Assembly (NCBI GenBank): GCA_963714015.1
Contig: OY970223.1
Span: 2,144,001-2,208,000 of the forward strand
DNA from: Vulcanimicrobiota bacterium
GTDB taxonomy: Bacteria > Vulcanimicrobiota > Vulcanimicrobiia > Vulcanimicrobiales > Vulcanimicrobiaceae
Direction: 5' to 3'
DNA length: 64,000 bases
Positions 8,457-64,000 of this stretch are shown piece by piece. How positions within the stretch are numbered: position 1 is the first letter of the stretch; each line of letters starts with the position of its first letter. Under the pieces are notes generated by a model, which made no database searches, had not been told where the DNA came from, and saw only the letters and a program-made list of their open reading frames with translations. A program made the position numbers and the translations under genes.

Positions 8457-9831
8457 CTACTGAACCGTCACCGGGATCTTGGCGGAGTTTCCGTTGCCGC
8501 TCTTGTCGGCGATGACGATGTTGCACTTCCCGGCGGCTGCGGCGGTTACCACGAACTCGTTGCCGTTGGGACCCTGCGTCACCGTGGCGATTGCAGCATT
8601 GGAGCTGGTTGCCGTCCACTTCGTTACGCCGCTCTGCGTCACTGTGAGCGTCTGTTGAGCACCCGGACCCGAAAGGGTGACTGTATCGGGAGTCACCTTG
8701 ATCGGCCGCAGAACGAGCACCCCGATTTCCATTCGGCTCGGGCTTCCCGGGTACACCGCTGTGAACCAGACGTTCGAGTCGGGACCGACGATCGTAACGC
8801 GCGGATTCGAGATGCTGTGAAGCGGCGGCGCGTACGCCGTGAATGCGTTCGTCGTGATGTCGTATTGCACGACGTTGCCGCTATCGGCAGACTCCACCGT
8901 ACCAGAGAGTATGCCCGGCTCCGCTCGTCATGTCGCCGCTTACCTCGCCCGCGTAGGCGTTCGAAGGAGGCGTGAAGGCCGTTGGAATGCCGGCCGGCGT
9001 CACTCGCACGATCTTCGTCCCGCAGTCAACCCAAATATTTCCGTCGTTCGCGGCGGTTAGCGCGTTGTCGAATTGGCAGCCGACCAAGGAGGTGAGATTG
9101 TAAAACGTCATGACGCCGGTCGAGGGGACGATAGTGCCGAGCCAAGCGGGATTTATTCCGGCTCCTCCGAGCGTGAACCACAGATTGTGATCGCTGCCAA
9201 GCGCGATGTCGCCCGGACTGGGCTGATAATTCCCGGGATACGGATATTGCGTCACCACGCCCGCCGGAGTAATCATGCCGATGTGATGGTACTCCGTGAA
9301 CCACACGTTGCCGTCGGAGCCCAAAACGAAGCCGCCCGCGGACACGTCGTTGTTCGCATCGCTCGTTCCGATGTCGTAGAGCGAGGCGTGACCTTGTGTG
9401 TCCATAGCGTCGACAGCGCCGCATCCGCCGCTGCAGTTGCCGTTCGCGCTGTCGAAGCTGCCGAAGTAAAATCGTCTATCGGAACCGATCGCCATTCCGA
9501 AATTGGCGTCGCTCATCGTGCCGAGGGCAGGGAATTCCGTCGCCGTGCCGTTCTGCGTGAGGCGAACGATGCCGTTACCGGAAATATCCTCGAACCATAC
9601 GTTGCCGTTGGGCCCGTCGACCAGCCCGTCGTACGTGTACGGAGTCGTGGCTAGGGTAGATGGTTTGAAGGTGACCCACTTGGAACCGCCGCCTATCTGC
9701 TGCACGAGCGGTACCGCGCCGGGGCCCTGGCGGGTCTGGGCCGGGCCGGAGCCGGGCAGCGAACCTGCGCCGCCGCAAGCACTGACGAGCACCGAAAAGG
9801 CAATAAGGCGGGCTATAAAAGATACGCGCAA
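8457..9831 (-). CDS. Vgb/streptogramin-lyase-like beta-propeller lipoprotein with a C-terminal Ig-like domain (frameshift near 8891)
   Basis: Lipobox VSAC; repeated GPNGNVWF, GSDGNVWFT, GSDHNLWFT and GPDSNVWFT blades spanning ORFs 8881..9831 and 8457..8897. Confidence 0.8.
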
Positions 9832-9981
9832 GTGACCGTCCTCCGATGCTTACGCCTTGTCTATGCCGGCCCCGCACTCCTACGCGAGGGAGTAGGCGTT
9901 TAAGCCCACTCATTTCGAATATACCCCATCGCGCGGTGCGAACGCGACTATCTGAGAAGTTCCAACGCTCTACGGTACCAG

Positions 9982-10716
9982 CTAACGAACGTAGCTGCCG
10001 CCGTTGACGTCGATGGTTGCGCCATTGGCGTAGTCTCCCGCTCCGCTGCAGAAGAAGGCCACGATCGAGGCGACTTCGGCGGGCGTTCCGACGCGCCGGC
10101 CGGGAATCTCCGCCTCGATCTCGCTGCGCCGGTTTTCGAGTTCTTCGGCGGCCATCTCGGTGTTGATGAAGCCGGGAGCTATAGAGATTGAGACGATGCC
10201 GTCTTTCGCGCACGAACGCGCAATGGATTTCGTAAGGTTGTTCAGCGCCGCTTTGCTCGCTCCGTAGTCGGCGAAACTCAATTCGCCGCGATGCGACGAA
10301 CGCGAAACGATGTTGACGACGCGTCCGGTTCCCCGCTCACGCATATGTTGGAGCACCAAAAACGTTAGGTTGGCGCAGCCGAATACGTTGACGGCGAACG
10401 TTCGCTGCCACCCGGCCCGCCAGTGCTCGTAGCTGTTCTCGAAGAAGGGGTTGTACTCGAAAATGGCCGCGTTGTTAACGAGCACGTCGATCGAACCAAG
10501 CTGCGCGATGCATCGTTCGACGAGTGCCGGAAGCGCTGCGGAATCCGCGATGTCACACTGCATTGCCGTAACGCCGGAAAGGAACTCCCGGCGCAAGCTT
10601 TGCGCGGCGTCCGCGTTGGTGTTGTACGTGAAGAAGATGCGGTCGCCGGCGGCGTGGAGCGCGCGTACGATCCCGGCGCCGATTCCGCGCGAACCGCCGG
10701 TGAGCAGCACGTTCAT
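9982..10716 (-). CDS. SDR family oxidoreductase (FabG-like)
   Basis: TGGSRGIG, VNNAA, YGASK, PGFINT, VNGG. The ATG overlaps the RES gene stop. Confidence 0.93.
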   Translation of the reverse strand: MNVLLTGGSRGIGAGIVRALHAAGDRIFFTYNTNADAAQSLRREFLSGVTAMQCDIADSAALPALVERCIAQLGSIDVLVNNAAIFEYNPFFENSYEHWRAGWQRTFAVNVFGCANLTFLVLQHMRERGTGRVVNIVSRSSHRGELSFADYGASKAALNNLTKSIARSCAKDGIVSISIAPGFINTEMAAEELENRRSEIEAEIPGRRVGTPAEVASIVAFFCSGAGDYANGATIDVNGGSYVR

Positions 10717-11915: not shown

Positions 11916-13067
11916 CTATCGCGGGAGCCGCGCGGCAAGCGCGTCGCGGTCGCGCTCCAGCTGCGCGATTTCCGCCTTCGTGCTCGCGTCGGCTGCACTA
12001 TCGGTCTGTCGAATTTCGGAAAAGCGGGCAGCGATGTCGTTCCCGGCCGCGCTATAAGCGGCGACCGTCGCCGCGGCATCGTCGCGAAACGCTTGCGCAC
12101 CCGAGGCGCGCATTGCAGTTACGCGCGAGCGCAAATCGGCATTGACGCCGGAGGCTTCGCGCGGGCTCGAGCCAAGCGGCAGACTCGCCGGAGTTCCTTT
12201 CTGCGCCGCCAGCACGTCGCGCCGCTGTGCAAGGTTCGCCTGCGTGCGCAGCGTGAGCCGGGCGCTCATGGCGGCGACGTCGCTATTTGCCTGCGTCAGC
12301 AACCGTTCGCGGTAGGCCGAGAGCACTCGGGCATCCGCAGCCTGCGCTTGCGCTGCGGCGCGATTCTCGCGAGCCTGCATTGCGGCAAGCTGCGCCCGGA
12401 TCGCAGCGGTTTGCGAGGAGTCCAGGGCTAGTGTCCCTTGCTTGGCGCGCAATTGCAGTCGCGTCGGCGCATCGCGGCGCGCCAGTTCGAGCAGAAGCGC
12501 CGACTCTTTCTCGTTCAGCTCCGCGGCGCGGTACTGATACGCCTGCGTCGTGCGTTCTTGAATCGCGCGCACGAAGGTGGCGTAGGCGCGCTGCTGCTGC
12601 GCGAGCAGCGCGTGCTCGTAGGCGGCCATATCGCCCTGCGCGCCGTTGCGCAATTGTGCGTACTCGGAGCGATAATCCGATTGCAGCCGCTGCTGCACGT
12701 CGGCGCGGCTCGGCGCTGAAGCCGAAGCGGCCGCGAGAACGGCGCTGACGGCGTCATCTTCGCGCGCGGCGTAGGCCGCAGCTTTTTGTGCGATGAGCGA
12801 ATTTGCTCGGCTCGAGTCGGCTGCGACGTCGCGTTTCAATGCAGCAACCGCCGCGTCCACATTGCTCGCGGTGTTTTGGAATGCCGGCGCGCCGAACGTC
12901 GCGCGCAGCGCCGCAATCTGCCGGTCGTACTGCGCGATCGCTCCTCTGAGGACGCCTTGCTCGGAGGCGCTGAGCGGCGCGGCATGCTGCACCGGAGCGG
13001 CGCTTGCAGCGCATCCGGCGAGCACGAGCGTTGCGCACGAGAGGAGAATCTTAAAATTTATGTTCAT
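11916..13067 (-). CDS. Ala/Gln-rich coiled-coil lipoprotein
   Basis: Lipobox LAGC and long helical composition; overlaps the end of tamB. Confidence 0.75.
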   Translation of the reverse strand: MNINFKILLSCATLVLAGCAASAAPVQHAAPLSASEQGVLRGAIAQYDRQIAALRATFGAPAFQNTASNVDAAVAALKRDVAADSSRANSLIAQKAAAYAAREDDAVSAVLAAASASAPSRADVQQRLQSDYRSEYAQLRNGAQGDMAAYEHALLAQQQRAYATFVRAIQERTTQAYQYRAAELNEKESALLLELARRDAPTRLQLRAKQGTLALDSSQTAAIRAQLAAMQARENRAAAQAQAADARVLSAYRERLLTQANSDVAAMSARLTLRTQANLAQRRDVLAAQKGTPASLPLGSSPREASGVNADLRSRVTAMRASGAQAFRDDAAATVAAYSAAGNDIAARFSEIRQTDSAADASTKAEIAQLERDRDALAARLPR

Positions 13068-16000
13068 ACATGAAACTCGTTCCGCTGCTTCCGAGCGCCG
13101 GCTGCATCAGCGTGCTGCCGCCGCCGTTGTCGAATCCCAGCAGGTTGTTGCTTTGCGCGAAGCTCAGCAGCGAGGGCGACTGCACGTCATAGAACATCAG
13201 ATTGAAAGCGGTCGACTCGCCATGATGCGCTTCGATGCTCAAACTCTGGCGCTTCGGCTGGGCCATCGTCTCGTCGTAGACGACGGTCATATGTTTTCCG
13301 AACGCCTTGGCGGCGCTAACACCGAATCCGCTGGCGAAGTCGTCCGTGAGCTGCAGATTCTGCAGTCCCAGTGCGGTTCCCAACTGTGCGGAAAGCGGCT
13401 CGAGCATCTCACGCGTAAAGAACGTGTTCACCTCGCCCGAAGCCAGATTTGCGACGGCGGAGTTCGCCGAAAAGTCGCCCGCTCCGGCCAGTGCCGGACC
13501 GCTAGGACCTCCGATACCCGCCAGTAATCCCATGATCTGCTGTTCGTTGTACGGCGGATCCGAATCGAACGCGATGTGGAGATTATCCGGCGCAAGACCG
13601 CTGACGTTGATTGAGACGAACGTGGTCTGCGGAGTGGTCAGAGTCGTCGTGGCAGTTGCGTTTACGAACGGCATAATTCCGTTCGCCGGATCGAACCGCA
13701 CGCGAGCGCTCTGTATGCCGAAGGTGCGGAAGAAGCTCACGGTGCCGCCGGTCGCCTGGAATGCGCCGCGCAGCGTTGGGTCTTGCAGCGTTCCCCCTAC
13801 GGTTACCGCGCCTTGCGCGCCAACGTCAACGTTGGAGCTCTGCACGCGCACGTCGTTACCGACGTGGGCAGTGAGGTTCAAAGCAACGTCCGGCAGCGTT
13901 TTTTTCGGCCCCTGAGGCGCTTTCGGATTCCAGAATGCGGTCAGCGGAATCCGCGCGCTCGGCAGGTCGACTGTTCCAGCGATTGCAGGGGCGGCGCGCG
14001 GCGTCGTGCGCGAGGCGGTGACGTCCGCGTCGATCTTTCCGCGGAAGTACTGCGGACTGTTGAACTGTGCACCTTTGGCGACGACACGCGCGTTGAACGT
14101 CGCCGCCCGGATGTCGCGAACGTTCGGCAAATGGGCGCTGCCGAGCAGATCCATCGTTCCGCCGCCAACGTCGGCATGGACCGCTTGCAGCGCAACCGTC
14201 CTTCCGGAGAAGATCACGGCGCCGTTCATTTTGGAGATGGGATTCTGGTCGATCGGTCCGACGAAATATCCGTTGTGAAGCGCGATTTGTCCGGCGAGCA
14301 GCGGATCGTCGAGCGTGCCGTCGATCGTCATCGCGCCCGTCAGCGTTCCCGCCAAACGAGTACCTTTCGGCAGCGCGCTCTCGAAGTTACTGAAATCTAC
14401 GTTGTCGGCCGCGATCGCCAAACGCACCGGTTTATTTGCGGGATCCAGCTGCACGTGCGGTTTCATCGCAATAGGAACCCAGCCCGAGGCGGTAATCCGC
14501 CCGCGCGCAAACTGAACCAACCCGTTACGGATCTGCACTCGTGATTGGTTCACTGCGACGACTGCGCTGGCTGCCGGGATCGTCAGATCCTTGTACCGGA
14601 GCCGCGTGAGTGCAAGCGTGTCGGTCAATTGCGGATCGGTGCGCGTGCCCTGCACGCGCAGAGTCGTGTCGAGCGCTCCGGTAACCGGCGGCGCTTTTCC
14701 GCTCGCGGAGCGCATCAGCGCACCGACGTCGGGGCTAGTCGCGCGCATCGACAAATCCAGCGGATCGTTTGCGTGCAGGCCGAACGTGCCCGACCCATTT
14801 GCGGTGAGGTACGGAATCTGCACGATCGCTTGCGTGATGCTGCCGTGTCCGCGTGAGGCGCTCAGCGCAAGCTGCGCGCGCTGCAACTGAATTCTGCCCA
14901 CCGTTCCGCGTTCGATTGCCGCATTCGCAGCGATCGTTTCATCGGGAAAGCGCCCGCGAACGGCCGCATGCGCATTGAGTTTGCCCGTCACGGGTGCGGA
15001 ATAGCCCATCATCGGAAGCCATGTAGCCAAATCCAGATTCGAAACGTCTGCGTTCAGATTCGCGTCCGCGTGCGTGGCGAGATCCGCTACACTGTTGAAA
15101 GGCGGAACGGTCACAATCCCTGCCAGCGTGGCGCGGCCGGAATCTCCGCCGACGGCGGCATTCAGCGCGATCGTTTGCCCTTGCGTCTGCCAATTTGCAG
15201 CGGCGTTACCGAGGTCGAAGCGCCGGAATCGGACGCCTTGCAGCGCCACGTTGCCGTTGGTGGCGATAGTTCCGCCGATTTCGCGCGCATCGAGCGCTAC
15301 GCGCCCGGTTCCGGCGAGCGTGTCTCCCGTATCGAAATAGTCGTTGAAGTCGGCGAGGTTCGCGCGCGGCGCGGTCATCGCCGCGCTCATTGCGCCGCGA
15401 GCGGCCGCAGCGTCGAACGCGACGGAAGTAGAACCGATAGCGACATGTCCGTTGCCGATCGTCATGTCTTGCGGCGTACCGCGAAGGTTTGCGCGCATGT
15501 CGCGAAACGCAAGACCGTGCACGGATCCTTCGGGCACGCTCAGATCGCCGTTCACCGCGATCGCTTTGCCGCTACCGCCTACGTGGACGTTCGCATCGAT
15601 GCTGCCTTCAATGTCCTGCTTGGAAAGTTTGGGCTGCGCGATCGCAATCAGCTGATGCGCATCGGCTGCGCGCAGAGTCGCATTGAGGTCGTATTGCGGC
15701 AGCATCGTCCCGGTTCCCAAACGGACGCCCGAGACGTTTCCGTCGATCGCTATAAGCGCGGGGCCGAGTCCGACCATGCCGTCGCGAAGCGTGAGGGTGT
15801 CGCCGCTATAAGCGATCGCGCCTTGCGCATCGATCGGGAATTTGTCGTACATTCCTCGATTCAGCAGCAGCGTTCCGTTCACGTCCGGTGCGGTAATAGG
15901 CCCGCGCACCGTTGCGGCAAAGTCCGCTCGGCCCGCGGTCAGCGGCACGCCGGCGCCGTGGAGCGCCTGCATGTTCAAATTTGCGACGGTCAGCGCCATA

Positions 16001-18091
16001 CCGCGATTGAGCGTTCCCGTGGCGCTCGCGCGTCCGCTTCTAGCGACGAGCGCGCGCGCCGCGTAAACTCGAACGGTCTTTCCTTGAGTTCCGATCGTCG
16101 CGCTCATGCCGTTAATCGGCACGCCGCGCACCGTTGCGTTGGAGAATCGCGCCTGATGAATCTGAGCTACGGCGCGCCCGCCGTCGTATACCAGCGCTAT
16201 CGGCGCATTGACGCTTCCGGTGGCGGGCATGCTTCCGGCAAACTGTGAGAGCGCCGAAAGCGAACCGGCGTAACGCCCCTCCAGCGCGACGTGGTTGGTG
16301 CCGGAGATCGTTCCTGCGGCGTGCAGCGTTCCGAACGAGCCGCGCGCGTTCAGAGACGAGACGCGCACGTCTCCGAGCGTTCCGCCGAAGCGAGCGCTCG
16401 CGTCGGCGATTTCGATCTTTCCATACCTGGCATTCTGAAGATCCGCATCGCCCAGCATGCCGAGCGCTTTGCCCTGCTGCGCTGCAAACACGCTGCCGGT
16501 CATCTGCGCGCTGCCCCGATAATTGATCGGAAAGTTTCGCGCGCTAACGAGGGCCTGCGTAGCGTCGTGCGGGTGATCGATAGCGATCCGTGCATAGAGC
16601 GAGCTTCCCGGCTCGTCCACTTCGAGCGGCCCTGCCGTTCCGACGCCCTGACTGTTCACGTGGAACGTGCCGGCCAGTTGCGAGTCAAAACCGGATCCGC
16701 TCACGACGCCGCGCGTATCGATCTTTTTCAGATTGTCGGCGAATGCGAGAACCGAGCCCTGCAGCTGCATCGACGGCGCGATCGCCGGCGCAAAGGGAAC
16801 GTCGCCGCTCGGCCCTTCCATGCCCGCAAGGATCTCCACCGCGCGCGGACCGGACTGCAGTGAGACGCGGCCTCGAGCATTTACCGAAAGGCGCCGGTAG
16901 CCGACGCTTGCGCTCAGCACGTCGGCCTCTCGTCCGTCGAAGGCGACCAACGCCTGCGGCTCGTTCAGCAGCGTGCCTTTGTAGTTCAGCCTGTCCGGAG
17001 CGTGCGGAAATGAGGACGAGCGGACTTTTCTGAGTGCCTTCGGCAAGCATTGCAAACGCGAGCGGTCCGCGAACCGGCAGGCGCGCCGTCTGAGCCAGCG
17101 CGCTCGTCAGTTGCGATGCATCGCCGCTTCCTTGGATCAGGAAGCGGATGCGCGGATGCGAAAGATCGCTGATTCCGCCGCGCACGCTTACCGGAATGCC
17201 GTTCAAATCGGCAGTGAAATCACCGGTCGTAGCGGCGTCACTGCTTACGTCCAGCCGGCCTTTTCCATCGCGGATCGGCGTGCGCAGCTGCGCAGCGGCG
17301 ACCTTCGCGCCTTCGACGTACGCGCTTGCCGCGAGTTTTCCGTAAAAGCGCACGTCAACACCGGTCAACGCTCCGCCGATCATGCGCATCGCGCGATTGT
17401 TGATGCCGTAGTTCACGATGCGCGGAAGCGGAACGCGAGCCGCGCTCCAGTGCTGCAGGTTCAAACCGCTGCGCTCGTCGATCGTCCCGTTCCCATAGAT
17501 CGGATAACGCCGCGATCCCTCTCGGTAAATAAGCGACGCGACGTACGTCGTACTCGCTGCCGTGTCGACCGACGCACTGAGGTTCACGCGATCGACGTAG
17601 AGGTGTTGTGAGTCGGAATCGACGCGCGTATAGTCTGCGACGCTGACGCGGCCATTCAGGATCCGGGCCGTAAACCAGAGCGGCGATGCCGCGCGCGGAG
17701 ATGCGGCTTTCTTAGCCTGTGACGGAATGTTGTAGGTGCCGTCGCGATTGTGAATGATGGTGACCTGCGGGTCGTAGACCACGATTGAATGCAATCCGAA
17801 GCGGTGCCGGCTCCCCGGCAGAACGTCGCGCAGATCGTAGGTCAAGTCCAATCGCGGGATGTAGGCAATCCGCTGTCCGCGGTGCGAACTTACGATGACA
17901 CCGGTAAGTTCGGCGTGGTTCGAATGAAGCGCGATGCGGCCGAAGTTTATATTCGTTCCGGTGGCCGCGCCGACGATCTTTGGAATGAGCGCGGCAGCTA
18001 CCGTGCCGCGAAAGGCATACGCCAAGCCGGCCACGAGGACCACTACCGCCAAGACCGCGGCGAGCGCTCGCCGCCTGCGCACATACGCCAT
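13051..18091 (-). CDS. tamB: TamB/AsmA-like translocation and assembly module protein (frameshift near 16990)
   Basis: N-terminal TM anchor, long Gly-rich beta-strand repeats, C-terminal DUF490-like region (GTVSFF, FDSDPPYNEQQIMGLL); joins ORFs 16685..18133 and 13051..17055. Confidence 0.8.
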
Positions 18092-18169
18092 GCCGGGGTT
18101 ATGCCCCGGTCTGGAATTATTACGCGGAGTCATTCGGCCCTCGGGGCCTCCGAAGGGTACATGCGCCGC

Positions 18170-19034
18170 ATGGCGAGCGACGATTCGAACAGCGGTAATG
18201 ACGGCGGAGGGAACGTCGTCGCGCTAAGTCCGACCGAGGAGCGGGAGGTACGTAAGCGTTCGGCATTGCGCGCCGCAGTCGTGTTCGAGACGATTCGTCG
18301 AGAAGGTGAATCGGGAGCTCGAACGCGGGCCGGTTGCGCTCGCACTCTCCGGCGTTGCAGCAGGACTTTCGATGGGTTTTTCGCTCGTCGGTTCCGGCGT
18401 GCTTTACGCTTATCTCCCGCCCTCGCACTGGAAGCCGCTGCTGTCGAGCATCGGTTATACGTTCGGCTTTTTGATCGTGGTATTAGGCCGGCAACAACTC
18501 TTCACCGAAAACACGCTGACCGCGATGCTTCCGGTGCTCGACGATCGCGACAAGATCGGTAAGGGCGTGCAAATGATTCGATTGTGGGCGATCGTGCTGC
18601 TCACGAATCTGGCGGGCGCGGCGATCTTTGCGCTGGGCGCATTTCACACGCAGGCCTTCACGCCGGAAGTAAAAGCAGCGTTCTTGCAGCTCGGGCTGCA
18701 GTCGCTCCATCCGACGGTTGCCGAGATTTTTTGGCGGGGCATTCTTGCCGGATGGCTGATCGCTTTGATGGTTTGGCTGTTACCTGCAGCCAACCCGCAG
18801 CGCGTTTGGATCGTCGTCATCATCACGTGGATCGTGAGCGCGTCGGGCTTCAGTCACGTGATTGCGGGCTCGGTCGATGCGCTTTACGCCGTTTGCGCCG
18901 GAGCCTGGCCCTGGACGCTGTATGTTACGAACTTTCTGGTGCCGGTCCTAATCGGCAACTGCATCGGAGGAGCGGGCCTCGTTGCAATTCTCAACTACGG
19001 ACAAGTCGCCACGGAAACGCCCGAGCAGTCGTAA
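18170..19034 (+). CDS. Formate/nitrite transporter (FNT, YfdC-like) (frameshift near 18313)
   Basis: FETIRREG/ELER, SGVAAGLSMGFS, GRQQLFTENT, GFSHVIAGS, GNCIGG. Confidence 0.85.
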
Positions 19035-19060
19035 GGCATCCGTTGAACGAATCGACGGTC

Positions 19061-19942
19061 CTACGCCGCGCTCTGAGGCTGCCGAGATCGAATCCGTAGC
19101 CGGTCGCGAATGGCACGGCTTGGAACGCGGACGCGATCCGCGAGACGCAGCAGGTTCAGCAAGCGGATCGTCCACCACGTAAGGTCGATTTCGTACCACG
19201 CCATGCCGTGGCGCGCCGAGTACGGAAATGCGTGATGATTGTTATGCCAGCCTTCCCCCCAGGAAATAAGCGCCACCCACCAAGAGTTCGTGGAACGATC
19301 CGTCGTGCGATACGTCCGATATCCGAACATATGCGTTGCGCTGTTGACCAGCCACGTTGAATGGTAGGCGAGGACCAAACGAACGAAGATTCCCCATACG
19401 ACGAAGGGCCAGCCGCCGGCGGCAAAGAGCAGTGCAGCGAATGCAAACTGCATCGGCAGATGGAGATGAAAGAGCACCCGGTAAAACGGCTCGTTCCATA
19501 AATCGGGACAGTACTTGGCGAAGTCTTCCGTTTTCGGAATGTTCGGGTTCGGCTTGAAGAGCCACTCGACGTGCGCCCAACTGAATCCCTTGCGCGTGCT
19601 ATGCGGATCGCCTTCGCGGTCCGAGTTGGCGTGATGTACTCGATGCGTGGCAACCCAGGTTATGGGGTCTCCCTGAAAAGCGAGCATTCCCAACAGCGCC
19701 ATGAAGTACTCGACCGGCTTACGCAAACGGACGCTGCGATGCGAGAGCGTGCGGTGATAGCAGAGCGTAATTCCCCAGGCCCCCGTGGCATACGCAATGA
19801 TGGCCGCCGCGACCAGCGCCCACCACGAAAAGAGCGCCGGAACCACTGCCGCCGCAGCGCCCAGGTGAATAACTAAAAGGCCGATTCCTGTCGGCCAGTT
19901 CGGTCTAGCATCACGCATGTAGCGCAGATTCCCATTTCTCAC
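19061..19942 (-). CDS. Delta-9-type acyl-lipid/acyl-CoA desaturase
   Basis: His boxes HRTLSH, HRVHH and HNNHH; GEGWHNNHH. Confidence 0.93.
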   Translation of the reverse strand: MRNGNLRYMRDARPNWPTGIGLLVIHLGAAAAVVPALFSWWALVAAAIIAYATGAWGITLCYHRTLSHRSVRLRKPVEYFMALLGMLAFQGDPITWVATHRVHHANSDREGDPHSTRKGFSWAHVEWLFKPNPNIPKTEDFAKYCPDLWNEPFYRVLFHLHLPMQFAFAALLFAAGGWPFVVWGIFVRLVLAYHSTWLVNSATHMFGYRTYRTTDRSTNSWWVALISWGEGWHNNHHAFPYSARHGMAWYEIDLTWWTIRLLNLLRLADRVRVPSRAIRDRLRIRSRQPQSAA

Positions 19943-20604
19943 GCAGCTCTATCGTGTTCGCAAAGACGCCCGGCACCTGCACGGCACCGGGCGTCTTGCT
20001 GCTGCACCCGAGGAAATACCTGGTGAGCTGATACCAAACCCGCGCGCAAGGCATAAACCGCTACCTGAGTTCGCGCCGTCAGGTTCATTTTAGCCAGAAT
20101 GTGCGAGATGTGGTTCTTCACCGTCTTATCGCTCAGTGAAAGCCTCGTGCTGATCTCCTTATTGGAAAGACCCTCGGCGACGAGTCGAACCACCTCCATC
20201 TCGCGTTCGGAGAGCCCGGAAAGCGCTTCGGTGCCGCCGGTCGCCAGAACCCGGAGGCGAGGACGCGCTGCGCCCGGGAACGATGGGACAAGCATCTTGA
20301 CCGCGCCCAAAAGGTCGCGCAAGTTCAAATCACCGAGCGCTTCAAGCAGGCAAACTCGCGTGCCGGGGGAGACTTCCGCAACGTACTGCTCCGCCTGGGC
20401 AGCGTCGACTGCCTGATCGCTCTGGTCCAAAATGACGATCTCGGGGCGCAGCTCCGCGATGGGCGCCGTCCCAACGGAGGGTGACTCGCCGATTACGGCG
20501 ATGCCCTCGTCCAACTCGAGCAACCGCGAAAGCGCCCGCAGAATAAGCGGATCCTTGCCGACCACCATAACCCGCGCCAGCGCCGGTTCTTGCAAATAGG
20601 CCAT
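19939..20604 (-). CDS. NarL/LuxR-family regulator with a degenerate receiver domain
   Basis: LSEREMEVVRLVAEGLSNKEIS...TVKNHISHIL HTH. The true stop may lie near 20030. Confidence 0.85.
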   Translation of the reverse strand: MAYLQEPALARVMVVGKDPLILRALSRLLELDEGIAVIGESPSVGTAPIAELRPEIVILDQSDQAVDAAQAEQYVAEVSPGTRVCLLEALGDLNLRDLLGAVKMLVPSFPGAARPRLRVLATGGTEALSGLSEREMEVVRLVAEGLSNKEISTRLSLSDKTVKNHISHILAKMNLTARTQVAVYALRAGLVSAHQVFPRVQQQDARCRAGAGRLCEHDRAA

Positions 20605-20761
20605 CCCGCACTCCAATAAGGAAAGTCGAACACCAAAAGCCTACTCCGGTCATTTTTCATGGGACTTACGACCTATGAGGGCGGCCTTACAAAGCGATTA
20701 CACCGCTGCCTGCTTGGGTGCTACGGAAGTCGGAAGGGCCGCCCGTGTCGTAATTAGAGGG

Positions 20762-23638: not shown

Positions 23639-23694
23639 GGAACAATTTTTATGCAAGCGGCGACGGCTTCGTCGATGCAATCGGCTAAACGCGT

Positions 23695-24267: not shown

Positions 24268-24337
24268 CCCGAGCGATTGCAGCGAAGGCTCTCGCGGTTC
24301 GCTTTTCTTTTCGATAAATCGTCAGTGGAGGACGCTT

Positions 24338-26440: not shown

Positions 26441-26705
26441 GGCCTAAACGTTCGAGACGCTGACGAACCCCGTTGTTCGTGCGTCCGAACAGCAAGGCAA
26501 TATCCTCGACGGCGTTGCCGGCGGTGAAGAGTCTGCGCAATTCTTCATCGTCGGCGGCGCTCCAAGCCTTGCCGGCGTTCGGATGCGTCTCCCGCAGCTT
26601 AGCATAGGGTCCCGGCCTTTTGCCAAGTACTTGCAGCTCGGCGAGAAGGTCCTCGACGCGCGAGCAAAGGCAGTCCAATTTTACCATCGTTGCGTCCATG
26701 TCCAT
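26421..26705 (-). CDS. Small HTH (Myb/SANT-like) protein
   Basis: NAGKAWSAADDEELRRLF...IALLFGRT..GVRQRLERLGL; ATG after AAAGGGTG. Confidence 0.65.
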   Translation of the reverse strand: MDMDATMVKLDCLCSRVEDLLAELQVLGKRPGPYAKLRETHPNAGKAWSAADDEELRRLFTAGNAVEDIALLFGRTNNGVRQRLERLGLISTAA

Positions 26706-48482: not shown

Positions 48483-48553
48483 CGGAAATCCGGGATACCG
48501 CTCGCATCCCTCTTTCCTTATACTCAACGCAATACGTCTGTGGAGGACGACTC

Positions 48554-51500
48554 ATGGGCTTGTTCGGTTGCGTTCGCGCGATTCTCTCACTCTGCATCTG
48601 CTGCGCGCTCTTGGCTTGGCAATGCGCGCCCGCCCTAGCCGGCACCACCGGAGGGGTAAGCGGCGTCGTCACCGACGCTGCCACCGGACGTCCGTTGGCG
48701 GATGCCAAAGTAAGCGTCACGAGTCCTTCGCAGACCGCCACGGTTCAAACGGACTCGGGCGGCCACTTTGCATTTCTATCGCTGGAGCCCGACACGTACA
48801 CGCTGACCGCCCTGCAGACGAACTACGATTCGTCGACGATCACCGGCATTGCGGTGTTCGCCGATCAGACCCAGACAGTCACCGTAGCGCTGCAGCCCTC
48901 GCTCAAAACCATCGCGCGCGTTACTTCCCGCTCGTCGATCAGTCCCGTCAAGCCGGGCACCACCGGAGACGTCTATTCCGTGAATCCGGCGCTCGCCCAA
49001 GCATCGGCAACGCTGGGCGGCGGCGGCAACCTTACAACGGCGTATTCCGCGATCGCGGCGATGCCCGGCGCGTACGTTCCGCCCAATCAGGTAGGGGTCG
49101 ACCAATCCGTCTACATTCGCGGCGGATACTACGATCAGATCGGTTTCGAGTTCGACGGCGTTCCGGTGAACCGTTCGTTCGACAATCTGCCCTCGCACGC
49201 GGTCGCGACACTCGGACAGCAGGAACTTCAGATCTACACGGGCGGAGGTCCCGCGGCCGCGGATGCGACGGGGCTTGCCGGATTCGTCAACCAAGTGATC
49301 AAAACCGGAACATATCCCGGCTCGGCAACGATCGAGGCACGCGTCGGCGGCCCGTCGTTCTATCATGAGTTTAGCGGCGAGCTCTCCGGGGCCACGCCCG
49401 ATCACCGGTTTTCGTACTACGTCGCGCTCTCCGGCACCAATCAGTTCTTCAATTATCTCTCGAATAACAACGGTACGGACATGCTGGACACGTTTCCTTA
49501 CGGCGACGGTCCGAGCAACTTGACGACCTTCTTGCCGTTCTATCCGGCCGTCTACCCGAATTGCAATCCGTCGGATCCGAACCTCTACGAGAATCCGGTG
49601 GCGCCGGGCAGTCCGGCGAATACGGGATCCGGCCCGACGCTAACCTCGGATCCGGGGTGCTACTCCGCAATTACGGATGCGTACGCTTTGCCGTCGATGG
49701 TCGACGATCGGGAAACGGTTGCGAACCTGCACTTTGCCGTTCCTCACAGGCACGACTCCGGACGAGACGACATTCAACTCCTGTTCGACAACTCCACGCA
49801 GTACGAGCAGATTTACGCCGGTCCCAACGACGTCGGACAACCCTTGCTCCAGGCGCTCGAGACGTGCTGCGGCGGCGGATTGATCTATGCGCCGCACTGG
49901 CCGGACTTCTTGACGTACCCGGCCGGCACGCCGTTCTTCGCTCCCGCGAACACGCCGCCGATCGCCTACCTCTTCCCCGGATCGCCGCTCGACCGCTGCA
50001 ACAACACGGACCTGCTCTCGAACGACAACCTGGTCTCACCTCCTTCGATTGCCGGTCAGTGTGCCAATGGGGGCCTTTCGCTGCTTCCGAACGACTACCG
50101 GGACGGGAGATGGGATCAGGCCAGCATCTTTAAAGCTCAATACCAAAAGAACTTCGGCAGCAACGCCTATCTGCGGTTGTTCGGATATACGTTTTACAGC
50201 AACACGAACCGCAGCGGCGCGTCGCGGTACGGCATCGGCAGCGGTTTGGGTGGAACGAACTACGACTACGAAGTCGATGCGCACACCCGCGGAGCGGAGA
50301 TGCAGTTTGCGGATCAGCTGACGGGAACGAATCAGCTGATGGCTACCCTCAACTACACAACGGCGAGCACGCTGCGATCCTACAGTTATCAAGACGAGAA
50401 TAACTGGAACGCTCCGGTCAGTAACTTGACGAACGGATCGCAATGCTTCGCCGCGTATAACGGTTACTTGCAGAACGATCCGCAAGGGCTCAATCCGATA
50501 TCCGCCGGTAGTGCCGAACCCTGCAACGACCCCATCACGCAGGGAACCTTCGGGGATCCGACGAGCGTCGCCGATCCTTCCGCTTCAACTCCGGTGGCCG
50601 AGGCTCTGAACTGCAGCGCATCGTCCTCCGGCGCGCCTATCCCCTCGCCGGCTTGCGCAGCGGGCGCCTCGTGGCGACTGACCTACACGGGCAACAATGC
50701 GCTCATAAACGCCGTTACGCCGAAATTCACAAACTTCTCGCTGACGGACGAGTGGCGCCCGAACGAGAAGCTGGACATAAACGCAAGTATTCGGTTAGAC
50801 CGTGATGAGTTCGACTTGCGCCCAATCGCCTCGCCGGGAACGAACTTTTGGTTCGCCGCGGCGCAAAATGAGTTTTGCTATTATCCGGATACCCTCTTGC
50901 CGCTTGTCGTTCCCCAGCCGCCGCAAAACGCAAGTTCGGTCGAGCCTTACGTTGCGCTGACGTGCCCCGGCAACACTGTGCATCCCGACGGGAAGAACGG
51001 CCACGTGCTCTTTACGGACCAGTTCAATCCGACGTACGTGCAGTCGTATGCGGAACCGCGCTTTGGGCTAACGTACCAAACCGATCCCGACACCGTTCTG
51101 CGCTTTTCCGCCGGACGTTACGCTCAAGAGCCCCAAAACTATGAAGTCGAATATGACGGCACGCAAGAAAACCTCGCCGCCGGGCTCTTCGGTTTTCTCC
51201 CGTTCGGTTTTACGACGCCGCGGCACGACGCGGGCGCGCAGTTCTCGAACAACTTCGACCTTTCGTACGAACACCATATCCGCGGAACCGATCTTTCGTT
51301 CAAACTGACCCCGTTCTACCGTTATGCGACCGACCAATTATACGAAACGGTCAGCATTCCGACGCTCTTCGGGCTCTCGCCTTCGTTCAATTCCGGGACG
51401 GAGCGCGCCGACGGCGTAGAATTGGAGTTCACGGCCGGCGACTTCAACAAGAATGGATTCTCGGGCGTATTCTCTTACACGTTTACCAACGCGAAAGAGC

Positions 51501-52415
51501 AGTGGGCGAATTACGCCGGCGTGCCGATCAATCCGGTCGACCCGTACAACGAAGCGATCCAGTATTACAATCAGTCTGACGTCCGCTTGCGGCGGCTCCA
51601 ACCCCTCACCCGTGCTCTGCGGCGACATGAGCGTCGTGGGGCCCCCGGCGCCGTGTTACACCAACAGCGGAACCGACTCGCCCGATCCCACCTGCGCACC
51701 CACGTCGATTCGCAACCCCTACTACAACATGCCGGCGCAGCCGCTGCTCGACAAGAACGGCTGGTACACGCCGGGGCTCGATTTTCCGTACGTTTCGCCG
51801 AACACGTTCTCGCTGGTAATGAACTACCGCCACGGTCCTTTTGCGATAACGCCCGCTCTTGAATTGGCGGAGGGAACCTCTTACGGAACGCCGGCGGACT
51901 TCCAGGGCTTGGACCCGCGCGTCTGTGGGGCAAATCAAGGTTCGATCGGCGTCAAGAGCGGAAATCCGCTCAACGCGGATTACACCTCGTGCGGGCTGGC
52001 CGCAACGCCGACCGGTACGTTGAACATTCCGAATCCTTATACCGGAACGTTCGACACGTTCGGCCAGTTTCAGCAGCCGTGGGATTTCAATTTAGGCTTG
52101 CAGGCCAGCTACGATCTCACGCGATCGGTGACCGCGAACCTGACGGTCACGAATTTGCTGAATCAGTGTTTCGGCGGATCGGCCGAGCCGTGGACCGCGG
52201 CGCACCCGCCCAGCCGCACCGTTTGCGGATACGGCTCGAACATCTTTTACATCAGCAATTTCTATAACGGCACGAGTCCCAACGACGTCTCTGCCAACGG
52301 CGTACCGCTCAATCCCGCATTTAGTCCGGCTTTCATGCCGGCGCCGGGCGACGACTCCGCGTACAACCTCACGTTGCCCCTGGAAGTATACTTCCAATTG
52401 CGGTTCAAGCTTTAG
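48554..52415 (+). CDS. Large TonB-dependent receptor (Oar-like) (frameshift near 51575)
   Basis: ATG after GGAGG; signal peptide; TTGGVSGVV.D N-domain; YIRGG..FEFDGVPVN plug; ends VYFQLRFKL. Confidence 0.85.
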
Positions 52416-56700: not shown

Positions 56701-57015
56701 GTGTACGTTGATGAAATGTTGAACTGCGTCGATTGTGGACGCCAGTTCGCGTTCACGGCCGGAGAACAGCAGTTCTACGCCAGCAAGGGCTTTCAAAACA
56801 AGCCGAATCGTTGCCCCGATTGCCGGCAGGCGCGCAAGCAAATGCGCTCGCAGTCCGGCGGGGGCGGCGGTATGGGCGGCGGCGGACAGCGTCGTGAAAT
56901 GTACCAGGCAACATGCAGCCAATGCGGCGGCATTGCAGAGGTGCCGTTCCAGCCGCGCGGCGACAAGCCGGTGTATTGCCGCGACTGCTTCCAGTCCAAA
57001 CCCAGCTACCGCTAG
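56701..57015 (+). CDS. Double zinc-ribbon (CxxC-x17-CxxC) protein
   Basis: CVDC..FTAGEQQFY..RCPDC, Gly-rich linker, CSQC..VPFQP..PVYCRDC; TAAGGAG RBS. Confidence 0.93.
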   Translation: MYVDEMLNCVDCGRQFAFTAGEQQFYASKGFQNKPNRCPDCRQARKQMRSQSGGGGGMGGGGQRREMYQATCSQCGGIAEVPFQPRGDKPVYCRDCFQSKPSYR

Positions 57016-57130: not shown

Positions 57131-58286
57131 ATGCGAGCAACCATGGTGCCCATTGCAGCCGCAGCGGTTATTGCACTGGCGGCCTGCTCTTCACCCGGCG
57201 GTCCAAGTGCGACCGCTCCGATAGTTCCGCAGTCCATCGCCGGACGAGGCGTCCAGGCGCCTCAAACCAGCGACTCGTCGGTTCTGCAAAATTTGCACGA
57301 GCAGACTGTCGGTTCGGTCGCCGATCCGGTCACCGGCGACGTAAATCCGTACGGACTGGCGGTTGCGCCCATAACCAACGGAAAGATCGACGCCGGCGAT
57401 CTCGTCGTCTGCGATTTCAACGACAAGCAAAACGTTCAAGGCACCGGTACGGCGATCGTGTCGATCGGTCCGGCCATCGGTTCGAAGCCTCGCCATATCG
57501 TCGATGCGAAAGTCTTGGAAGGTTGCGACGCAATTGCGCTTGCTCCCGACGATACGATCTGGCCCGCGGACTTTGTCGCGAACAACGCGCCTATCGTCAC
57601 GCCCGGTGGAAAGATTCTCACGACGGAGAGCAATGGACCATGGCACGGCCCTTGGGGCGAAGCGTTCGTTCCGCCGCTGAGCGAGAAGAACGTCCCGGCG
57701 TTTTACGTGAGCAATGCGGGCGACGGAAGCCTGGTTCGCATTGGGCTGGGGAACCAAGTAACGTTCACCGTCATCGCAACCGGCTTTCCCGTCAACGGCG
57801 GACAGCCCGGAAGCATTCTCGGGCCGTCGGGATTGAATTACGTCGCCTCGAGCGACCGCCTGTACGTGGTCGACGGAACGGATAACGCGCTGTATGCGAT
57901 CGACAACGTCTCGAGCGTCCATAAGAACGGCATCACGGTCGACGGACTGCAATTCAGCGGCCCGGATGCAAAAGATGCACACGTTATTTATGCGGGCAAG
58001 CCGCTGAACGGCCCGATTCAGCTCGGCGCTGCTGCCCGGTGGGCATATCGCTCTGGGCAACACGCTGGACCCGGCCGGCAAGAACCTCATCGTCGAGGTC
58101 ACGCCGGGCGGAAAGGTGGCCGACGTGCGAAATATCGATACAGGCGCATCGGGCGCAATCTTCGGAATGGCCGCAACGGGCGATTCGCCGGCCACGACCA
58201 AGCTGTACTTTAACGACGACAACGACAACACGCTTCGCGTGCTGACGCCGTGCCTGGTAACCAGCCCTCGCCAGGTTGCCTGCTGA
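57131..58286 (+). CDS. Secreted beta-propeller-like lipoprotein (frameshift near 58018)
   Basis: Lipobox LAAC; NPYGLA, GPWG and GPSGL repeats; continues in the +1 frame to TGA at 58286. Confidence 0.75.
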
Positions 58287-58319: not shown

Positions 58320-58716
58320 GTGACCGCCGTTAGTTGGAACGTTAAATTGGACACTGCCGGGAACGCAGACTGATGTGCGCCGGCAGTTTGTCCGTTTTCT
58401 GCGGTCGAGCACGCGGAGCGACGGCCGCTTCTTCGATGCAGAGCTCGTCGTCGGAGAACTGTTGGCCAACGTGGCTCAACACGAGCCGGGCGAGGCCAGG
58501 ATGACCGTCGACGTGGCAGGTGACGAGGCGATCGTAACGCTCGAAGGTCCCGGTCCAAAGATTGACGACCCCTCGCAACTTCCGGATGGACTCTGTGAAG
58601 GCGGGCGCGGCCTATTTCTGATTCAGACGCTCTCGCGCGACTATTATCGCCGGCGCACCGCCGGAGGCATCCACACGACGGTGGTGCTCGGGCTGCGTCG
58701 CCGGCGCACGGTCTAG
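58320..58716 (+). CDS. HATPase_c (RsbW-like anti-sigma/ATP-binding) protein (frameshift near 58369)
   Basis: ELVVGELLANV..H and EGGRGLFLI; an upstream GTG at 58320 joins if one base is removed. Confidence 0.75.
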
Positions 58717-58771: not shown

Positions 58772-60367
58772 ATGACGACCACCTACGATGCGATCATCAT
58801 CGGCGGCGGCCATAACGGTTTGGTTGCGGCCTGCTATTTGGCTCGCGCGAAGCGGCGAGTGCTCGTACTGGAACGCCGCTACATCGTCGGCGGCGCCTGC
58901 GTTACCGAAGAACGGACGTTTCCGGGATTCAAAATCTCTACGGCCGCGTACGTGAATAGTCTTTTCCGGCCGGAGATCGTTCGCGATCTCAACCTGACTG
59001 CGTACGGGTTCGAACTGCTCGAGCGCGATCCGGCGTCGTTTTCGCCGTTTCCGGACGGACGGTACTTGATGCTCGGAGGCGATGAGCACTTTAACCTCTC
59101 GGAGATATCCAAGTTCAGCCGCAAAGACGCAGAGCGCTATCCGCAGTACGAACAGATGCTGCTGCGCGTGGCGTCCGTGATAGAACCGACGCTTACGAAG
59201 CGGCCGCCGAACGTGCTCAGTCCTTCGGTGCCGGATTTGCTGCAAATGGGAATGCTCGGCCTCGACATGCGCAAGCTCGGCCCGTCCATGGGAGAAGCGG
59301 TGGAGATCCTCACCGGTGCGGCACGGCCGATTTTGGATCGTTGGTTCGAATCGGAGCAGCTCAAGGCCACGCTTGGAACGGATGCAATCATCGGAGCGTT
59401 TGCGGCCCCGTCCATGCCTGGTACCGCGTATGTCTTGTTCCATCACGTGATGGGCGAGACGAACGGCAAACGCGGGGTCTGGGCCTACGTGAAGGGCGGT
59501 ATGGGCAGCCTCACACAAGCGCTGGCACAAGCCGCGGGCGATCTCGGCGTAGAGATCAAAACCGAGGCTGAGGTGGCGCGCATTCTAACCAAAGATGGTG
59601 CGGTGACCGGCGTGGCGCTGAGCAACGGCGACGAATTCAGGGCAACGACCATCGCCAGCAGTGCGGATTGCAACGTGACGTTCAATAAATTATTGAACGG
59701 CGCGCGAAGCGAGCTTCCGAGCGGGTTCATGGACGCCGTCAACAGCATCAGCTACGAGAGCGCTTCGGCGAAGATCAACGTCGCTTTGGAACGTCTGCCG
59801 AGCTTCGCAGCGCTGCCCGGTCACGAGCCGGGTCCTCAACATCACGGAACGGTGCATCTCTGTCCGGATCAAGACTTCATCGAGCGCGCCTATGACGACG
59901 CCAAGTACGGTGTGCCTTCACGCAGTCCGGTCGTTGAATGCACGATGCCTTCGTCGGTCGATCCGACCGTTGCGCCGCCCGGAAAGCACGTGATGTCGAT
60001 GTTCGTCCAGTACGCGCCCTACAAGCTGAAAGACGGCGAGTGGACGAGTGAAGCGAAGAACGCCTTTGCGGACAGCTGCTTCGATATCGTGGAAGAGTAC
60101 GCGCCCGGATTCAAAGAATCGGTGATCGATCGCCAGATTCTTACGCCGGTCGACCTGGAGGAGACGTTCAACCTCACGGGCGGCAACATCTTCCAAGGCG
60201 CGATGAACCTGGACAAGCTCTTCATGTTCCGGCCTGCGCCGGGATATGCCGGATACAAGATGCCGATCAAAGGTCTGTACCTTTGCGGCGCGGCAGCGCA
60301 CCCCGGCGGCGGCGTAATGGGTTCGCCCGGCTGGAACGCGGCGCGAGAAATTCTTCGCAACAAGTAA
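58772..60367 (+). CDS. Phytoene dehydrogenase-like FAD oxidoreductase (PYROXD2-like)
   Basis: IGGGHNGL, VGGACVTEE, GGMGSL, GGNIFQG, HPGGGVMG. Confidence 0.92.
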   Translation: MTTTYDAIIIGGGHNGLVAACYLARAKRRVLVLERRYIVGGACVTEERTFPGFKISTAAYVNSLFRPEIVRDLNLTAYGFELLERDPASFSPFPDGRYLMLGGDEHFNLSEISKFSRKDAERYPQYEQMLLRVASVIEPTLTKRPPNVLSPSVPDLLQMGMLGLDMRKLGPSMGEAVEILTGAARPILDRWFESEQLKATLGTDAIIGAFAAPSMPGTAYVLFHHVMGETNGKRGVWAYVKGGMGSLTQALAQAAGDLGVEIKTEAEVARILTKDGAVTGVALSNGDEFRATTIASSADCNVTFNKLLNGARSELPSGFMDAVNSISYESASAKINVALERLPSFAALPGHEPGPQHHGTVHLCPDQDFIERAYDDAKYGVPSRSPVVECTMPSSVDPTVAPPGKHVMSMFVQYAPYKLKDGEWTSEAKNAFADSCFDIVEEYAPGFKESVIDRQILTPVDLEETFNLTGGNIFQGAMNLDKLFMFRPAPGYAGYKMPIKGLYLCGAAAHPGGGVMGSPGWNAAREILRNK

Positions 60368-60389
60368 TGCCAATGAAACAGAAAGAACA

Positions 60390-61055: not shown

Positions 61056-61831
61056 AGATCGTTACCCTGAACTGCAACGGAATTCGATCCGCAGCGCGTA
61101 AGGGGTTCTACAGTTGGATGGAGGCGCAGGATGCAGACTTCATCTGTCTGCAGGAGACGAAGGCTCAGGAGCATCAGCTCCCGCTCGAAGCGGCGGCCGT
61201 TTCGCACTATACCGGCGTGTTTTTGGATGCCGAGAAGAAGGGCTACAGCGGCGTCGCCATCTATGCCAAACGCGAACCGCAAAACGTCGTTCGCGGCTTG
61301 GGCTGGCCGGAATACGACCGCGAGGCGCGATGGCTGCAGTTCGACTACGACGAATTCAGCATCGTTTCGCTTTACGTGCCGTCCGGCTCGATGGGCCCCG
61401 CGCGGCAGGCTGTAAAAGAAGCCTTTCTCGAAAAATTCTATCCGGAACTCGCGCGTTTGCGCGCGAGCGGGCGCACCTTCATCATCTGCGGCGACTTCAA
61501 TATTGCGCATAAGGAGATCGACGTTTACAACCCTATCCGGTGCAGCAAAATCTCCGGATTCTTTCCTCACGAGCGCGCCTGGATGGATCGCGTCATAACC
61601 GAACTGGGCTGGGTCGACGGCTTTCGCTCGGCCAACCCAGAGCCCAAACAGTTCAGTTGGTGGTCGAATTTTCAGAACGCGTTCGCGCGCAACAACGGCT
61701 GGCGCATCGACTATCACCTCCTCACGCCGGACCTGGGGCCGTCAGTGAAATCGGCCTCTATCTATCGCGAGGCGCGCTTCTCCGATCATGCTCCGGTACT
61801 TCTGGAGTACGATCTGGACCTTGGAGCATGA
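61052..61831 (+). CDS. xth: Exodeoxyribonuclease III / AP endonuclease
   Basis: NCNGIRS, LQETK, GYSGVA, GDFNIAH, GWRIDY, SDHAP. Confidence 0.95.
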
Positions 61832-64000
61832 ACCTGGTCTGCATCGGCGGCGGCCCGGCCGGATTGTACTTCGGGCTGCTGATGAAGAAGGCCGATTCGG
61901 GCCATCGCGTTCGCGTGATAGAACGTAACCGCCCATACGACACGTTCGGCTGGGGCGTCGTGTTTTCGGACGCGACGCTCGAGAATCTGCAGCGAGCCGA
62001 CGAAGCCACCCACGACGAGATTCGCGCGGGGTTCGCGCACTGGGACGACATCGAGATCCATTTCAAAGGGCACACGCTTCGCTCCGGCGGACACGGGTTC
62101 TCCGGCATCGGCCGCAAGCATCTGCTGAACATCCTGCAACGGCGCGCCGAAGAGCTCGGCGTGGAGCTCGTGTTCGAAAGAGAGGTCGCGGACCTCGGGC
62201 CGTACCGCGATGCGGATCTGATCGTCGCCTCCGACGGCATCAATAGCCGCGTGCGCGCGACGAACGCCGATCGCTTCCAACCCGACTTGGACACGCGCAA
62301 CTGCCGCTTCGTCTGGCTGGGAACGACGCTGCCGCTCGACGCGTTCACCTTCGTCTTCGAACGCACCGAGCACGGCTGGTTCACCGTCCACGCATATCGT
62401 TTCGACGAGAACACGAGCACATGGATCGTCGAATGCCGCGAGGAGACTTGGGTCGCCCACGGCCTAGATCGCGCCGATACCCAAACCACGCTGCGCTTCT
62501 GCGAGGACCTGTTTGCGCCGTATCTGCACGGCCACGCGCTGATGTCGAACAGCCCGCACCTGCGCGGCCGCGACTGGCTCAACTTCACGCGCGTCAGCAA
62601 CGCGCACTGGACCGACGGCAATATCGTGCTGCTGGGGGACGCGGCGCATTCGGCGCATTTCTCAGTGGGATCCGGAACCAAACTCGCTATGGAGGACGCG
62701 ATTGCGCTGCAGCGCGCCCTTTGCGAAGAACTTTCCATGACGGCTGCGCTCGAACGCTACGAAAGCGAACGGCGCATCGAAGTGCTGCGGCTGCAGAACG
62801 CGGCGCGCAACAGCACCGAATGGTTCGAAAACGTCGCCCGCTACGCGCAGTCTGCCGCCCGAACAGTTCGCGTACAGCTTGCTCACGCGCAGTCAGCGCA
62901 TCAGCCACGAAAATCTGCGGCTGCGCGACAAAAACTACGTCGAGTCGGTGGAGCGCTGGTTCTCACCCGCGGGCGAACCCGTGCCGCCGATGTTCACGCC
63001 GATCCGGCTGCGCGAACTCGAGCTGCGCAACCGGGTCGTCGTCTCGCCGATGGACATGTACAGCGCGATTGAAGGAACGCCGAACGACTTTCATTTGGTG
63101 CACCTGGGTGCGCGCGCGCTTGGCGGCGCGGGCATGGTCTATACGGAGATGACGTGCGTGAGTCCCGAAGGGCGGATTACACCCGGCTGCACCGGGATGT
63201 ACAAGACCGAGCACCTCGCGGCGTGGAAACGCATCGTCGATTTCGTGCATGAATGGAGCGGCGCTAAGATCTGCCTGCAGCTGGGACACAGCGGCCCCAA
63301 AGGTTCGACGAAACTGATGTGGGAGGGCATGGACGAGCCGCTCGCCGAGGGCAATTGGCCCGTCAGCGGACCCTCGCCGATACGGTACGGTCCGCAGAAT
63401 CAACTGCCGCGCGAACTCTCCTGCGCCGAGATGAATCACATTCGCAGCGAATTCGTGCGCGCGTCGGAAATGGGAGTTCAAGCCGGGTTCGACATGCTCG
63501 AGTTGCACTGCGCACATGGGTACTTGCTGTCGAGCTTCATCACGCCGCTGCAAAACCGGCGCAGCGACGAGTACGGCGGATCGCTCGAGAATCGCCTGCG
63601 CTATCCGCTCGAGGTCTTCGCGGCGATGCGCGCGGTGTGGCCGGAGCATTTGCCGATGTCCGTGCGCATCTCAGCTACGGACTGGGTTGAGGGCGGCATC
63701 ACGGCCGAGGACTCCGTCGAGATTGCGCGGGCCTTTAAAGCCGCCGGCGTGGATTTGGTCGACGTCTCGACCGGCCAAACCTCGCGCGAAGCGAATCCAG
63801 TGTACGGCCGCATGTTTCAAACGCCGTATGCGGATCGAATTCGCAACGAGGTCGGCGTCAAGACGATGGCGGTCGGCAACATTTTCGAACCGGACCACGT
63901 CAACGGAATCATCGCAGCGGGGCGCGCGGATCTCTGCGCGATCGGGCGGCCGCACCTTGCCGATCCGAACTGGACGCTGCACGCCGCCGCCCAGCTCGGG
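61828..64000 (+). CDS. Bifunctional salicylyl-CoA 5-hydroxylase/anthraniloyl-CoA monooxygenase-type oxidoreductase (frameshift near 62851; runs off the right edge)
   Basis: [38 protein letters not shown], then an OYE-like domain: [35 protein letters not shown]. Confidence 0.9.

Follow-up and report, generated by a model that had tools for sequence, protein, structure and literature searches.

One-base frameshifts at AGCT in a Vulcanimicrobiota genome: assembly artefacts and a candidate footprint of base modification

Introduction

Why do otherwise intact genes in one stretch of a Vulcanimicrobiota genome change frame by a single base, and why do they do so at the word AGCT? The stretch of 64,000 nucleotides (the window) spans positions 2144001–2208000 of contig C1 (OY970223.1), the single contig of 3,562,638 bases that forms genome G000, with a G+C content of about 61% in the window and an estimated completeness of 89.62%. 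An earlier note, made from the letters of the window, had listed 11 frameshifts and two tentative cases and attributed them to motif-specific sequencing error at an AluI-type modified AGCT. We find that the frameshifts in the window are almost certainly artefacts of the assembly consensus in intact genes, and that the same error recurs at AGCT across the genome. Modification of AGCT in the native DNA, distorting the long-read signal, is the probable cause, and the alternatives are weighed below where the evidence bears on them.

The closest relatives in our comparison collection share only 65–77% DNA identity with the window, and comparison was therefore by protein throughout. None of the conclusions depends on the unpublished genome G010. 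Four relatives recur below: G001, of the same genus (60 contigs); G007, of a different genus (three contigs); and G008 and G006, each a single contig. G000, G007 and G008 belong to one family.

Results

Frameshifts across the genome concentrate at AGCT

As queries we took filtered open reading frames (ORFs) of two relatives, drawn from 338 kb of G001 and 1.6 Mb of G007 (1.94 Mb in all). They were searched against G000 with tblastn-fast, and a frameshift was called where two high-scoring segment pairs (HSPs) from one query ORF lay in frames offset by one base. The survey covered 45.7% of the genome and gave 229 merged events, 180 of the extra-base class (about 11 per 100 kb covered) and 49 of the other class. 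Every possible one-base deletion at each of the 180 extra-base events was scored against the relative's protein, and any position that scored no more than 4 units below the best was allowed.

A one-base insertion within or directly beside AGCT fits 103 of the 180 events (57%), against 112 of 1,440 shifted control positions (7.8%). Insertion between the two halves of the word, AG^CT, alone accounts for 57/180 events versus 16/1,440 controls, and in stricter subsets the AGCT share was 41–65% against 5–9% in controls. An unbiased k-mer scan placed AGACT/AGTCT first among 5-mers (46 of the 180 events, 1.9 expected), followed by AGCT itself. Furthermore, a codon-usage test that makes no use of homology ranked AG_CT first among 256 two-plus-two contexts for single-base deletions that join frames (191/12,818, versus 0.62% overall). 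When ORF length was the sole criterion, AG_CT was not among the top contexts for frame-joining deletions, in a test too noisy at 61% GC (3.1% background). The motif-specific error proposed from the window alone is thereby seen genome-wide; the wider claim that every clear frameshift sits at AGCT holds within the window (about 13 of 14) and not across the genome (about 57%).

The core of the motif is the 4-mer, since all ten NAGCTN hexamer classes are affected, roughly in proportion to their abundance; on the same grounds the hexamers CAGCTG and GAGCTC were rejected as the true motif. The inserted base was A or T in 43 of the 57 AG^CT cases, and 23 of 26 A/T insertions in a stricter subset read CAG[A]CT on one strand (the bracketed base being the surplus one). 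Insertions adjoining an intact AGCT were always C or G. In the other class 14 events were tightly mapped, and several of these, inspected by eye, also touch AGCT. Errors affect about 2% of the surveyed AGCT sites, and the word is not depleted in the genome (2610 per Mb, versus 2252 and 2556 in relatives).

Other motifs were not enriched at the 180 events, with ratios of 1.0 for GANTC outside AGWCT, 0.8 for GATC, 1.0 for CCWGG and 0.5 for homopolymers of at least 4. The first of these bears on a rival motif, GANTC, the CcrM-type target, which is contained in AGACTC and GAGTCT. GACTC was indeed seen 25 times where 3.6 were expected, and G000 encodes a distant CcrM relative. However, GANTC sites that do not overlap AGWCT occur at 8 of the 180 events, compared with 4.4% in controls, GANTC is created by only 13 of the 26 A/T insertions, and the three sites checked against independent contigs (below) contain none. 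That GANTC is the true motif is accordingly the least probable of the explanations considered, to the point of being negligible.

Independent contigs lack the extra bases

Logan contigs from a public soil run, X1, in which 30% of the words sampled from a 10-kb stretch occur, were compared with positions 16001–36000 of the window (20 kb). Four one-base indels separate the contigs from the window, and in all four X1 has one base fewer, never one more. Their positions are 16990 (AG[C]CT), 18313 (a G of the GGG preceding AGCT), 30448 (the C preceding AGCT) and 24316. Three of the four are thus predicted AGCT sites, and they are the sole AGCT-type differences seen in the 20 kb. The fourth, 24316, was considered as a frameshift and rejected, as it lies in an intergenic A-run, 22 nucleotides upstream of the start of an M28 peptidase gene. 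Substitutions between X1 and the window number 28, of which only one is near AGCT, and they look like strain differences.

Two further runs, X2 and X3, contributed hardly any informative cover to this stretch of the window; pieces 151 long in X2 suggest short reads. Within a response-regulator gene at 34284–34353, some 40–50 nucleotides reached a word depth of up to 377 from many unrelated contigs in X1–X3. This is a conserved receiver-domain motif and not cover of this organism.

Frameshift sites inside the window

All eight AG-N-CT strings that the earlier note had reported are present in the sequence: AGACT at 8889, AGCCT at 16988, AGTCT at 30153, AGACT at 30337, AGGCT at 46470, AGTCT at 51573, AGACT at 58367 and AGTCT at 62849. 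Intact AGCT was found at 18316, 20026, 30449 and 58020. The 11 listed frameshifts and both tentative cases (28467 and 20026) are all backed by relatives' proteins or by the independent contigs, and Pfam domains on the ORF pieces fit split genes.

Three sites lie on the minus strand. AG[A]CT at 8889–8893 splits the gene of a Vgb_lyase/Big_2 protein into pieces 8881–9831 and 8457–8897, both with Pfam matches; an HSP pair from G001 (49/46% identity) places the junction at 8885–8893. AG[C]CT at 16988–16992 splits a giant DUF748/TamB-like gene (pieces 16685–18133 and 13051–17055, with Pfam matches), for which G001 gives 67/67% identity and a junction at 16985–16992, and the X1 contig lacks base 16990. 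At 20026–20030, T[C]AGCT on the minus strand carries an extra C, through which a LuxR/GerE regulator loses its natural TAG stop and becomes about 30 residues longer. The orthologues in G001 (196 amino acids) and G007 (194 amino acids) both end after the V codon at 20034–20032, and removal of base 20030 (C) sets TAG exactly at that end; the GerE domain occupies residues 134–189.

The remaining sites are on the plus strand. An extra G lies just 5' of AGCT in [G]GG-AGCT at 18313–18319, where a formate/nitrite transporter gene begins (pieces 17789–18562 and 18306–19034), and is missing from the X1 contig at 18313; positions 13–239 of the Form_Nir_trans profile fall in the downstream piece. Three extra bases occur in one STAND NTPase-LuxR regulator gene (28742–31375). 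The first, AG[T]CT at 30153–30157, has AG^CT among the near-best deletion positions and a G001 HSP junction at 30135–30154; the second, AG[A]CT at 30337–30341, has a G001 junction at 30340–30398; and the third, T[C]AGCT at 30448–30452, has an HSP junction at 30437–30453 and an X1 contig without base 30448. In an AAA_16/TPR/GerE regulator gene (45758–48482, with Pfam matches), AG[G]CT at 46470–46474 coincides with a G001 junction at 46471–46473 (55/60% identity). AG[T]CT at 51573–51577 lies in a gene of about 1,350 amino acids with a CarboxypepD_reg domain (48353–52415), where the G001 HSP pair scores 606/151 bits and meets at 51571–51573.

Towards the end of the window, T[C]AGCT at 58017–58023 lies close to the 3' end of a gene (57131–58253) whose product has about 384 amino acids, and the ORFs of five of five relatives pass from frame 2 to frame 3 at 58017–58021. 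AG[A]CT at 58367–58371 is found close to the 5' end of an anti-sigma kinase-like gene that ends at 58716 and has a Pfam match to HATPase_c_2. Without base 58369 its N-terminus matches the G001 orthologue free of gaps, while the unaltered frame needs a gap of four residues; the single-frame read-through given here by tblastn was rejected as a spurious extension on direct alignment to G001. Finally, AG[T]CT at 62849–62853 lies close to the 5' end of a gene of the old yellow enzyme family (Oxidored_FMN), with an HSP pair from G007 (88/81% identity, junction 62850–62852) and the Oxidored_FMN domain beginning at residue 38 of the downstream piece.

The tentative case at 28465–28468 runs in the opposite direction, with a base lost and none gained. 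It is a probable missing base on the plus strand, C[-]GCT for CC[A]GCT, and the gene that holds it (28244–28745) is small and conserved; there, frame 2 YRYRVH runs on in frame 1 as AQVRAF, AQVRAFEHAYGP, when aligned to ORFs of two further relatives, G009 and G005. The gene sits between a cyclophilin gene and the STAND NTPase gene; besides its frame breaks it is shorter by about 12–16 residues than its G009 and G005 counterparts, and G001 and G002 showed no DNA match in the spacer that holds it. A second frame break in the same gene, absent from the earlier list, is a probable extra A in ACAAAC at 28586–28592 (plus strand), considered among the counter-evidence below.

Could the extra bases be real, so that these are pseudogenes, phase-variable genes or genes with programmed frameshifts in a decaying genome? 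The bases are present in the deposited sequence, and X1, about 1% different from the window, could be another strain. Against this, they are missing from the X1 contigs at all three AGCT sites reported (depth 2.6–3.8), deletion restores palindrome and frame together, the relatives' ORFs are uninterrupted, and G007 has the same pattern. Extra-base events number about 11 per 100 kb surveyed, and TamB-like and formate/nitrite transporter genes are among those hit. Decay would be expected to leave lesions in unrelated contexts, yet these are strongly tied to one motif. Programmed +1 ribosomal frameshifting is opposed by the lack of a conserved shift site, as G001 and other relatives keep a single frame at all window sites aligned. 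We therefore consider it very improbable that the extra bases are real, and the statement of the earlier note that the genes are not pseudogenes stands.

Two further events, at 34702–34710 and 60351–60372, were rejected as errors: they are natural junctions between complete genes (response regulator and histidine kinase; amine oxidase and O-methyltransferase, respectively). Two stretches of about 115 nucleotides, at 56900–57015 and 58785–58900, have numerous matches, at 75–91% DNA identity, in all 20 relatives as well as elsewhere in G000. Both coincide in part with the beginnings of ORFs (for the amine oxidase gene at 58772, with its Rossmann N-terminus), and no tRNA or Rfam family was found in either.

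The signature recurs in relatives

The same pipeline found 2 extra-base events in the 338 kb of G001. G007, in contrast to this, showed 183 one-base frameshift events in 1.6 Mb, of which 130 were of the extra-base class, and of its 94 tightly mapped events 30 had AGACT/AGTCT where 1.2 were expected, with CAGAC and AGCT likewise raised. This is the same signature as in G000. In G008 we found 22 events in 400 kb, 18 with an extra base, and about 5 of 13 lie at AGCT by eye; its C5 methylase gene and one PF01555 gene are each split into pieces. G006 had 1 extra-base event in 400 kb.

Two readings would account for a signature shared by two genera: AGCT is marked across the family, or the platform or pipeline has a context bias that acts at (C)AGCT in any low-coverage long-read metagenome-assembled genome, independent of modification. 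The identical signature in G007, of another genus, is what such a bias would give, as are the G008 events partly at AGCT and the small share of AGCT sites affected. Conversely, G000, G007 and G008 are one family with conserved methylases, and may equally have a modification in common. G006, likewise assembled as one contig, is nearly free of extra-base events, its sequencing platform not being on record. Moreover, an insertion bias of about 30-fold at an unmodified 4-mer would probably have been noticed in benchmark genomes, which counts against a bias of this kind. On balance we think this explanation unlikely, though by a good deal the most serious of the alternatives.

Candidate methylases

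All methylase loci found in G000 lie outside the window, as the earlier note had supposed for the enzyme responsible. They comprise two PF00145 loci (one full cytosine-C5 methylase and one partial), three PF01555 loci (beta-class N4/N6) and one PF02086 locus (D12). The genome search thus yielded C5, beta-class and D12 genes, none of them assignable to AGCT.

The full C5 enzyme (2073055–2074479; 475 amino acids, with an N-terminal helix-turn-helix (HTH)) belongs to a trio at C1:2071555–2075979, 70 kb upstream of the window, with a small HTH protein upstream of it and a convergent ORF of 338 amino acids. The trio resembles a type II restriction–modification system, and the 338-residue ORF, which matched no Pfam or NCBIfam family, may be a nuclease. 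The D12-class N6-adenine methylase (17386–18048) adjoins an ORF with a PDDEXK_11 nuclease domain (PD-(D/E)XK) at C1:16842–18168, and the two look like a second restriction–modification pair. A D12 methylase also occurs in G007 and G008, and G006 has only a weak 24-bit match. A beta-class PF01555 enzyme at 1044743–1045396 has counterparts at 63–73% identity in G001, G007 and G008. Its best solved relative is CcrM (6pbd, E 9e-22), and it falls well under the CcrM equivalog cut-off, with 99 versus 830 bits.

G007, at 93% completeness, gave 0 PF00145 matches and holds no homologue of the G000 C5 enzyme. An AluI-type mark would call for a C5 methylase wherever the AGCT signature occurs; because G007 has the signature without a PF00145 match, an AluI-type 5-methylcytosine (m5C) enzyme is not specifically supported, and this version of the earlier claim is weakened. 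The same absence can be counted in favour of a modification-independent bias. If an AGCT enzyme exists, one common to G000, G007 and G008, either the CcrM-like beta-class enzyme or the D12 enzyme, is more likely than the C5 methylase found only in G000.

Discussion

Origin of the extra bases

The frameshifts in the window are consensus artefacts and the genes are intact, a conclusion that we hold with near certainty because the relatives read through, the independent contigs lack the extra bases, the events gather at one palindromic word, and G001 showed just two of them. For the cause we favour base modification at AGCT in the native DNA as the probable explanation. AGCT would be modified in this bacterium and in related genera, and the basecaller or polisher would then emit an extra letter. 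The errors are not mutations but arise in the consensus of a single-contig metagenome assembly, probably built from long reads. Most often CAGCT is written as CAG[A]CT; the forms AG[S]CT and [S]AGCT are rarer, and now and then a base is lost. Such a read-level bias may win the consensus only where coverage is thin, with which the share of about 2% of AGCT sites fits.

Several observations weigh against this explanation. The extra-base events without AGCT number 77 of 180 (43%), and one break in the window, near 28590, lies in an A-run with no AGCT; there, frame 1 IYVT runs on as frame 2 TFRVEYGEPDRQ against G009 and G005 in a weak alignment that spans a gap of 12–16 residues. The support from X1 is shallow, with one contig per site at a depth of 2.6–3.8 and about 1% divergence, maybe from a sister strain, and it covers three sites, the other ten being without reported cover. 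Homologues of the G000 methylases carry generic names only, from which no AGCT specificity can be assigned. The recurrence in two genera is open to both readings given above. The modification errors described in the available part of PMC11610603 are C-to-T and G-to-A substitutions, whereas those in G000 are mainly one-base insertions and hence frameshifts, a difference that would also suit a modification-independent bias. Finally, our literature search on AGCT and nanopore errors found no paper that ties the two.

A more specific form of the modification hypothesis can be put forward tentatively, and we think it more doubtful than modification as such. The family of uncultured soil bacteria that holds G000, G007 and probably G008 may mark AGCT genome-wide by means of a conserved chromosomal enzyme, a CcrM-like orphan beta-class or D12 methylase, making N4-methylcytosine (m4C) or N6-methyladenine (m6A) and not m5C. 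If true, the AGCT mark would be a core epigenetic mark rather than part of a mobile restriction system, with a footprint readable from assembly errors alone.

Practical meaning

By extrapolation about 390 genes of the 3.56-Mb genome are split by artefacts. Gene calls, completeness (89.6% for G000), pseudogene counts and findings of unusual split genes in G000 and G007 should therefore be read with AGCT errors in mind, and suspect frameshifts can be flagged by a simple rule, namely a single surplus base within or next to AGCT, typically as CAG[A]CT. For uncultured soil lineages the error pattern also gives a cheap, indirect clue to a methylation motif. Its main value is practical, as a quality warning, and it would become new biology only once modification is shown.

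Comparison with known systems

The AluI restriction–modification system recognises AGCT and carries an m5C methylase. The layout of the C5 methylase, HTH protein and 338-residue ORF in G000 is likewise type II-like; the target word is known for AluI, whereas here AGCT is only a candidate. Unlike what AluI would lead one to expect, the error signature in G007 is present without a PF00145 match. Among the CcrM-like orphan beta-class methylases, the enzyme at 1044743–1045396 is a distant relative, and GANTC is no error motif in G000.

Errors induced by modification are documented for nanopore reads, according to the available part of PMC11610603. As far as the accessible parts of PMC11610603 and PMC11610573 describe them, such errors resemble ours in that they occur at a short methylase-type motif, persist in long-read-only assemblies, are missing from short reads and allow the methylome to be read indirectly. 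The kind of artefact is already known; its form, insertions that lead to frameshifts, and its motif, AGCT, are unusual.

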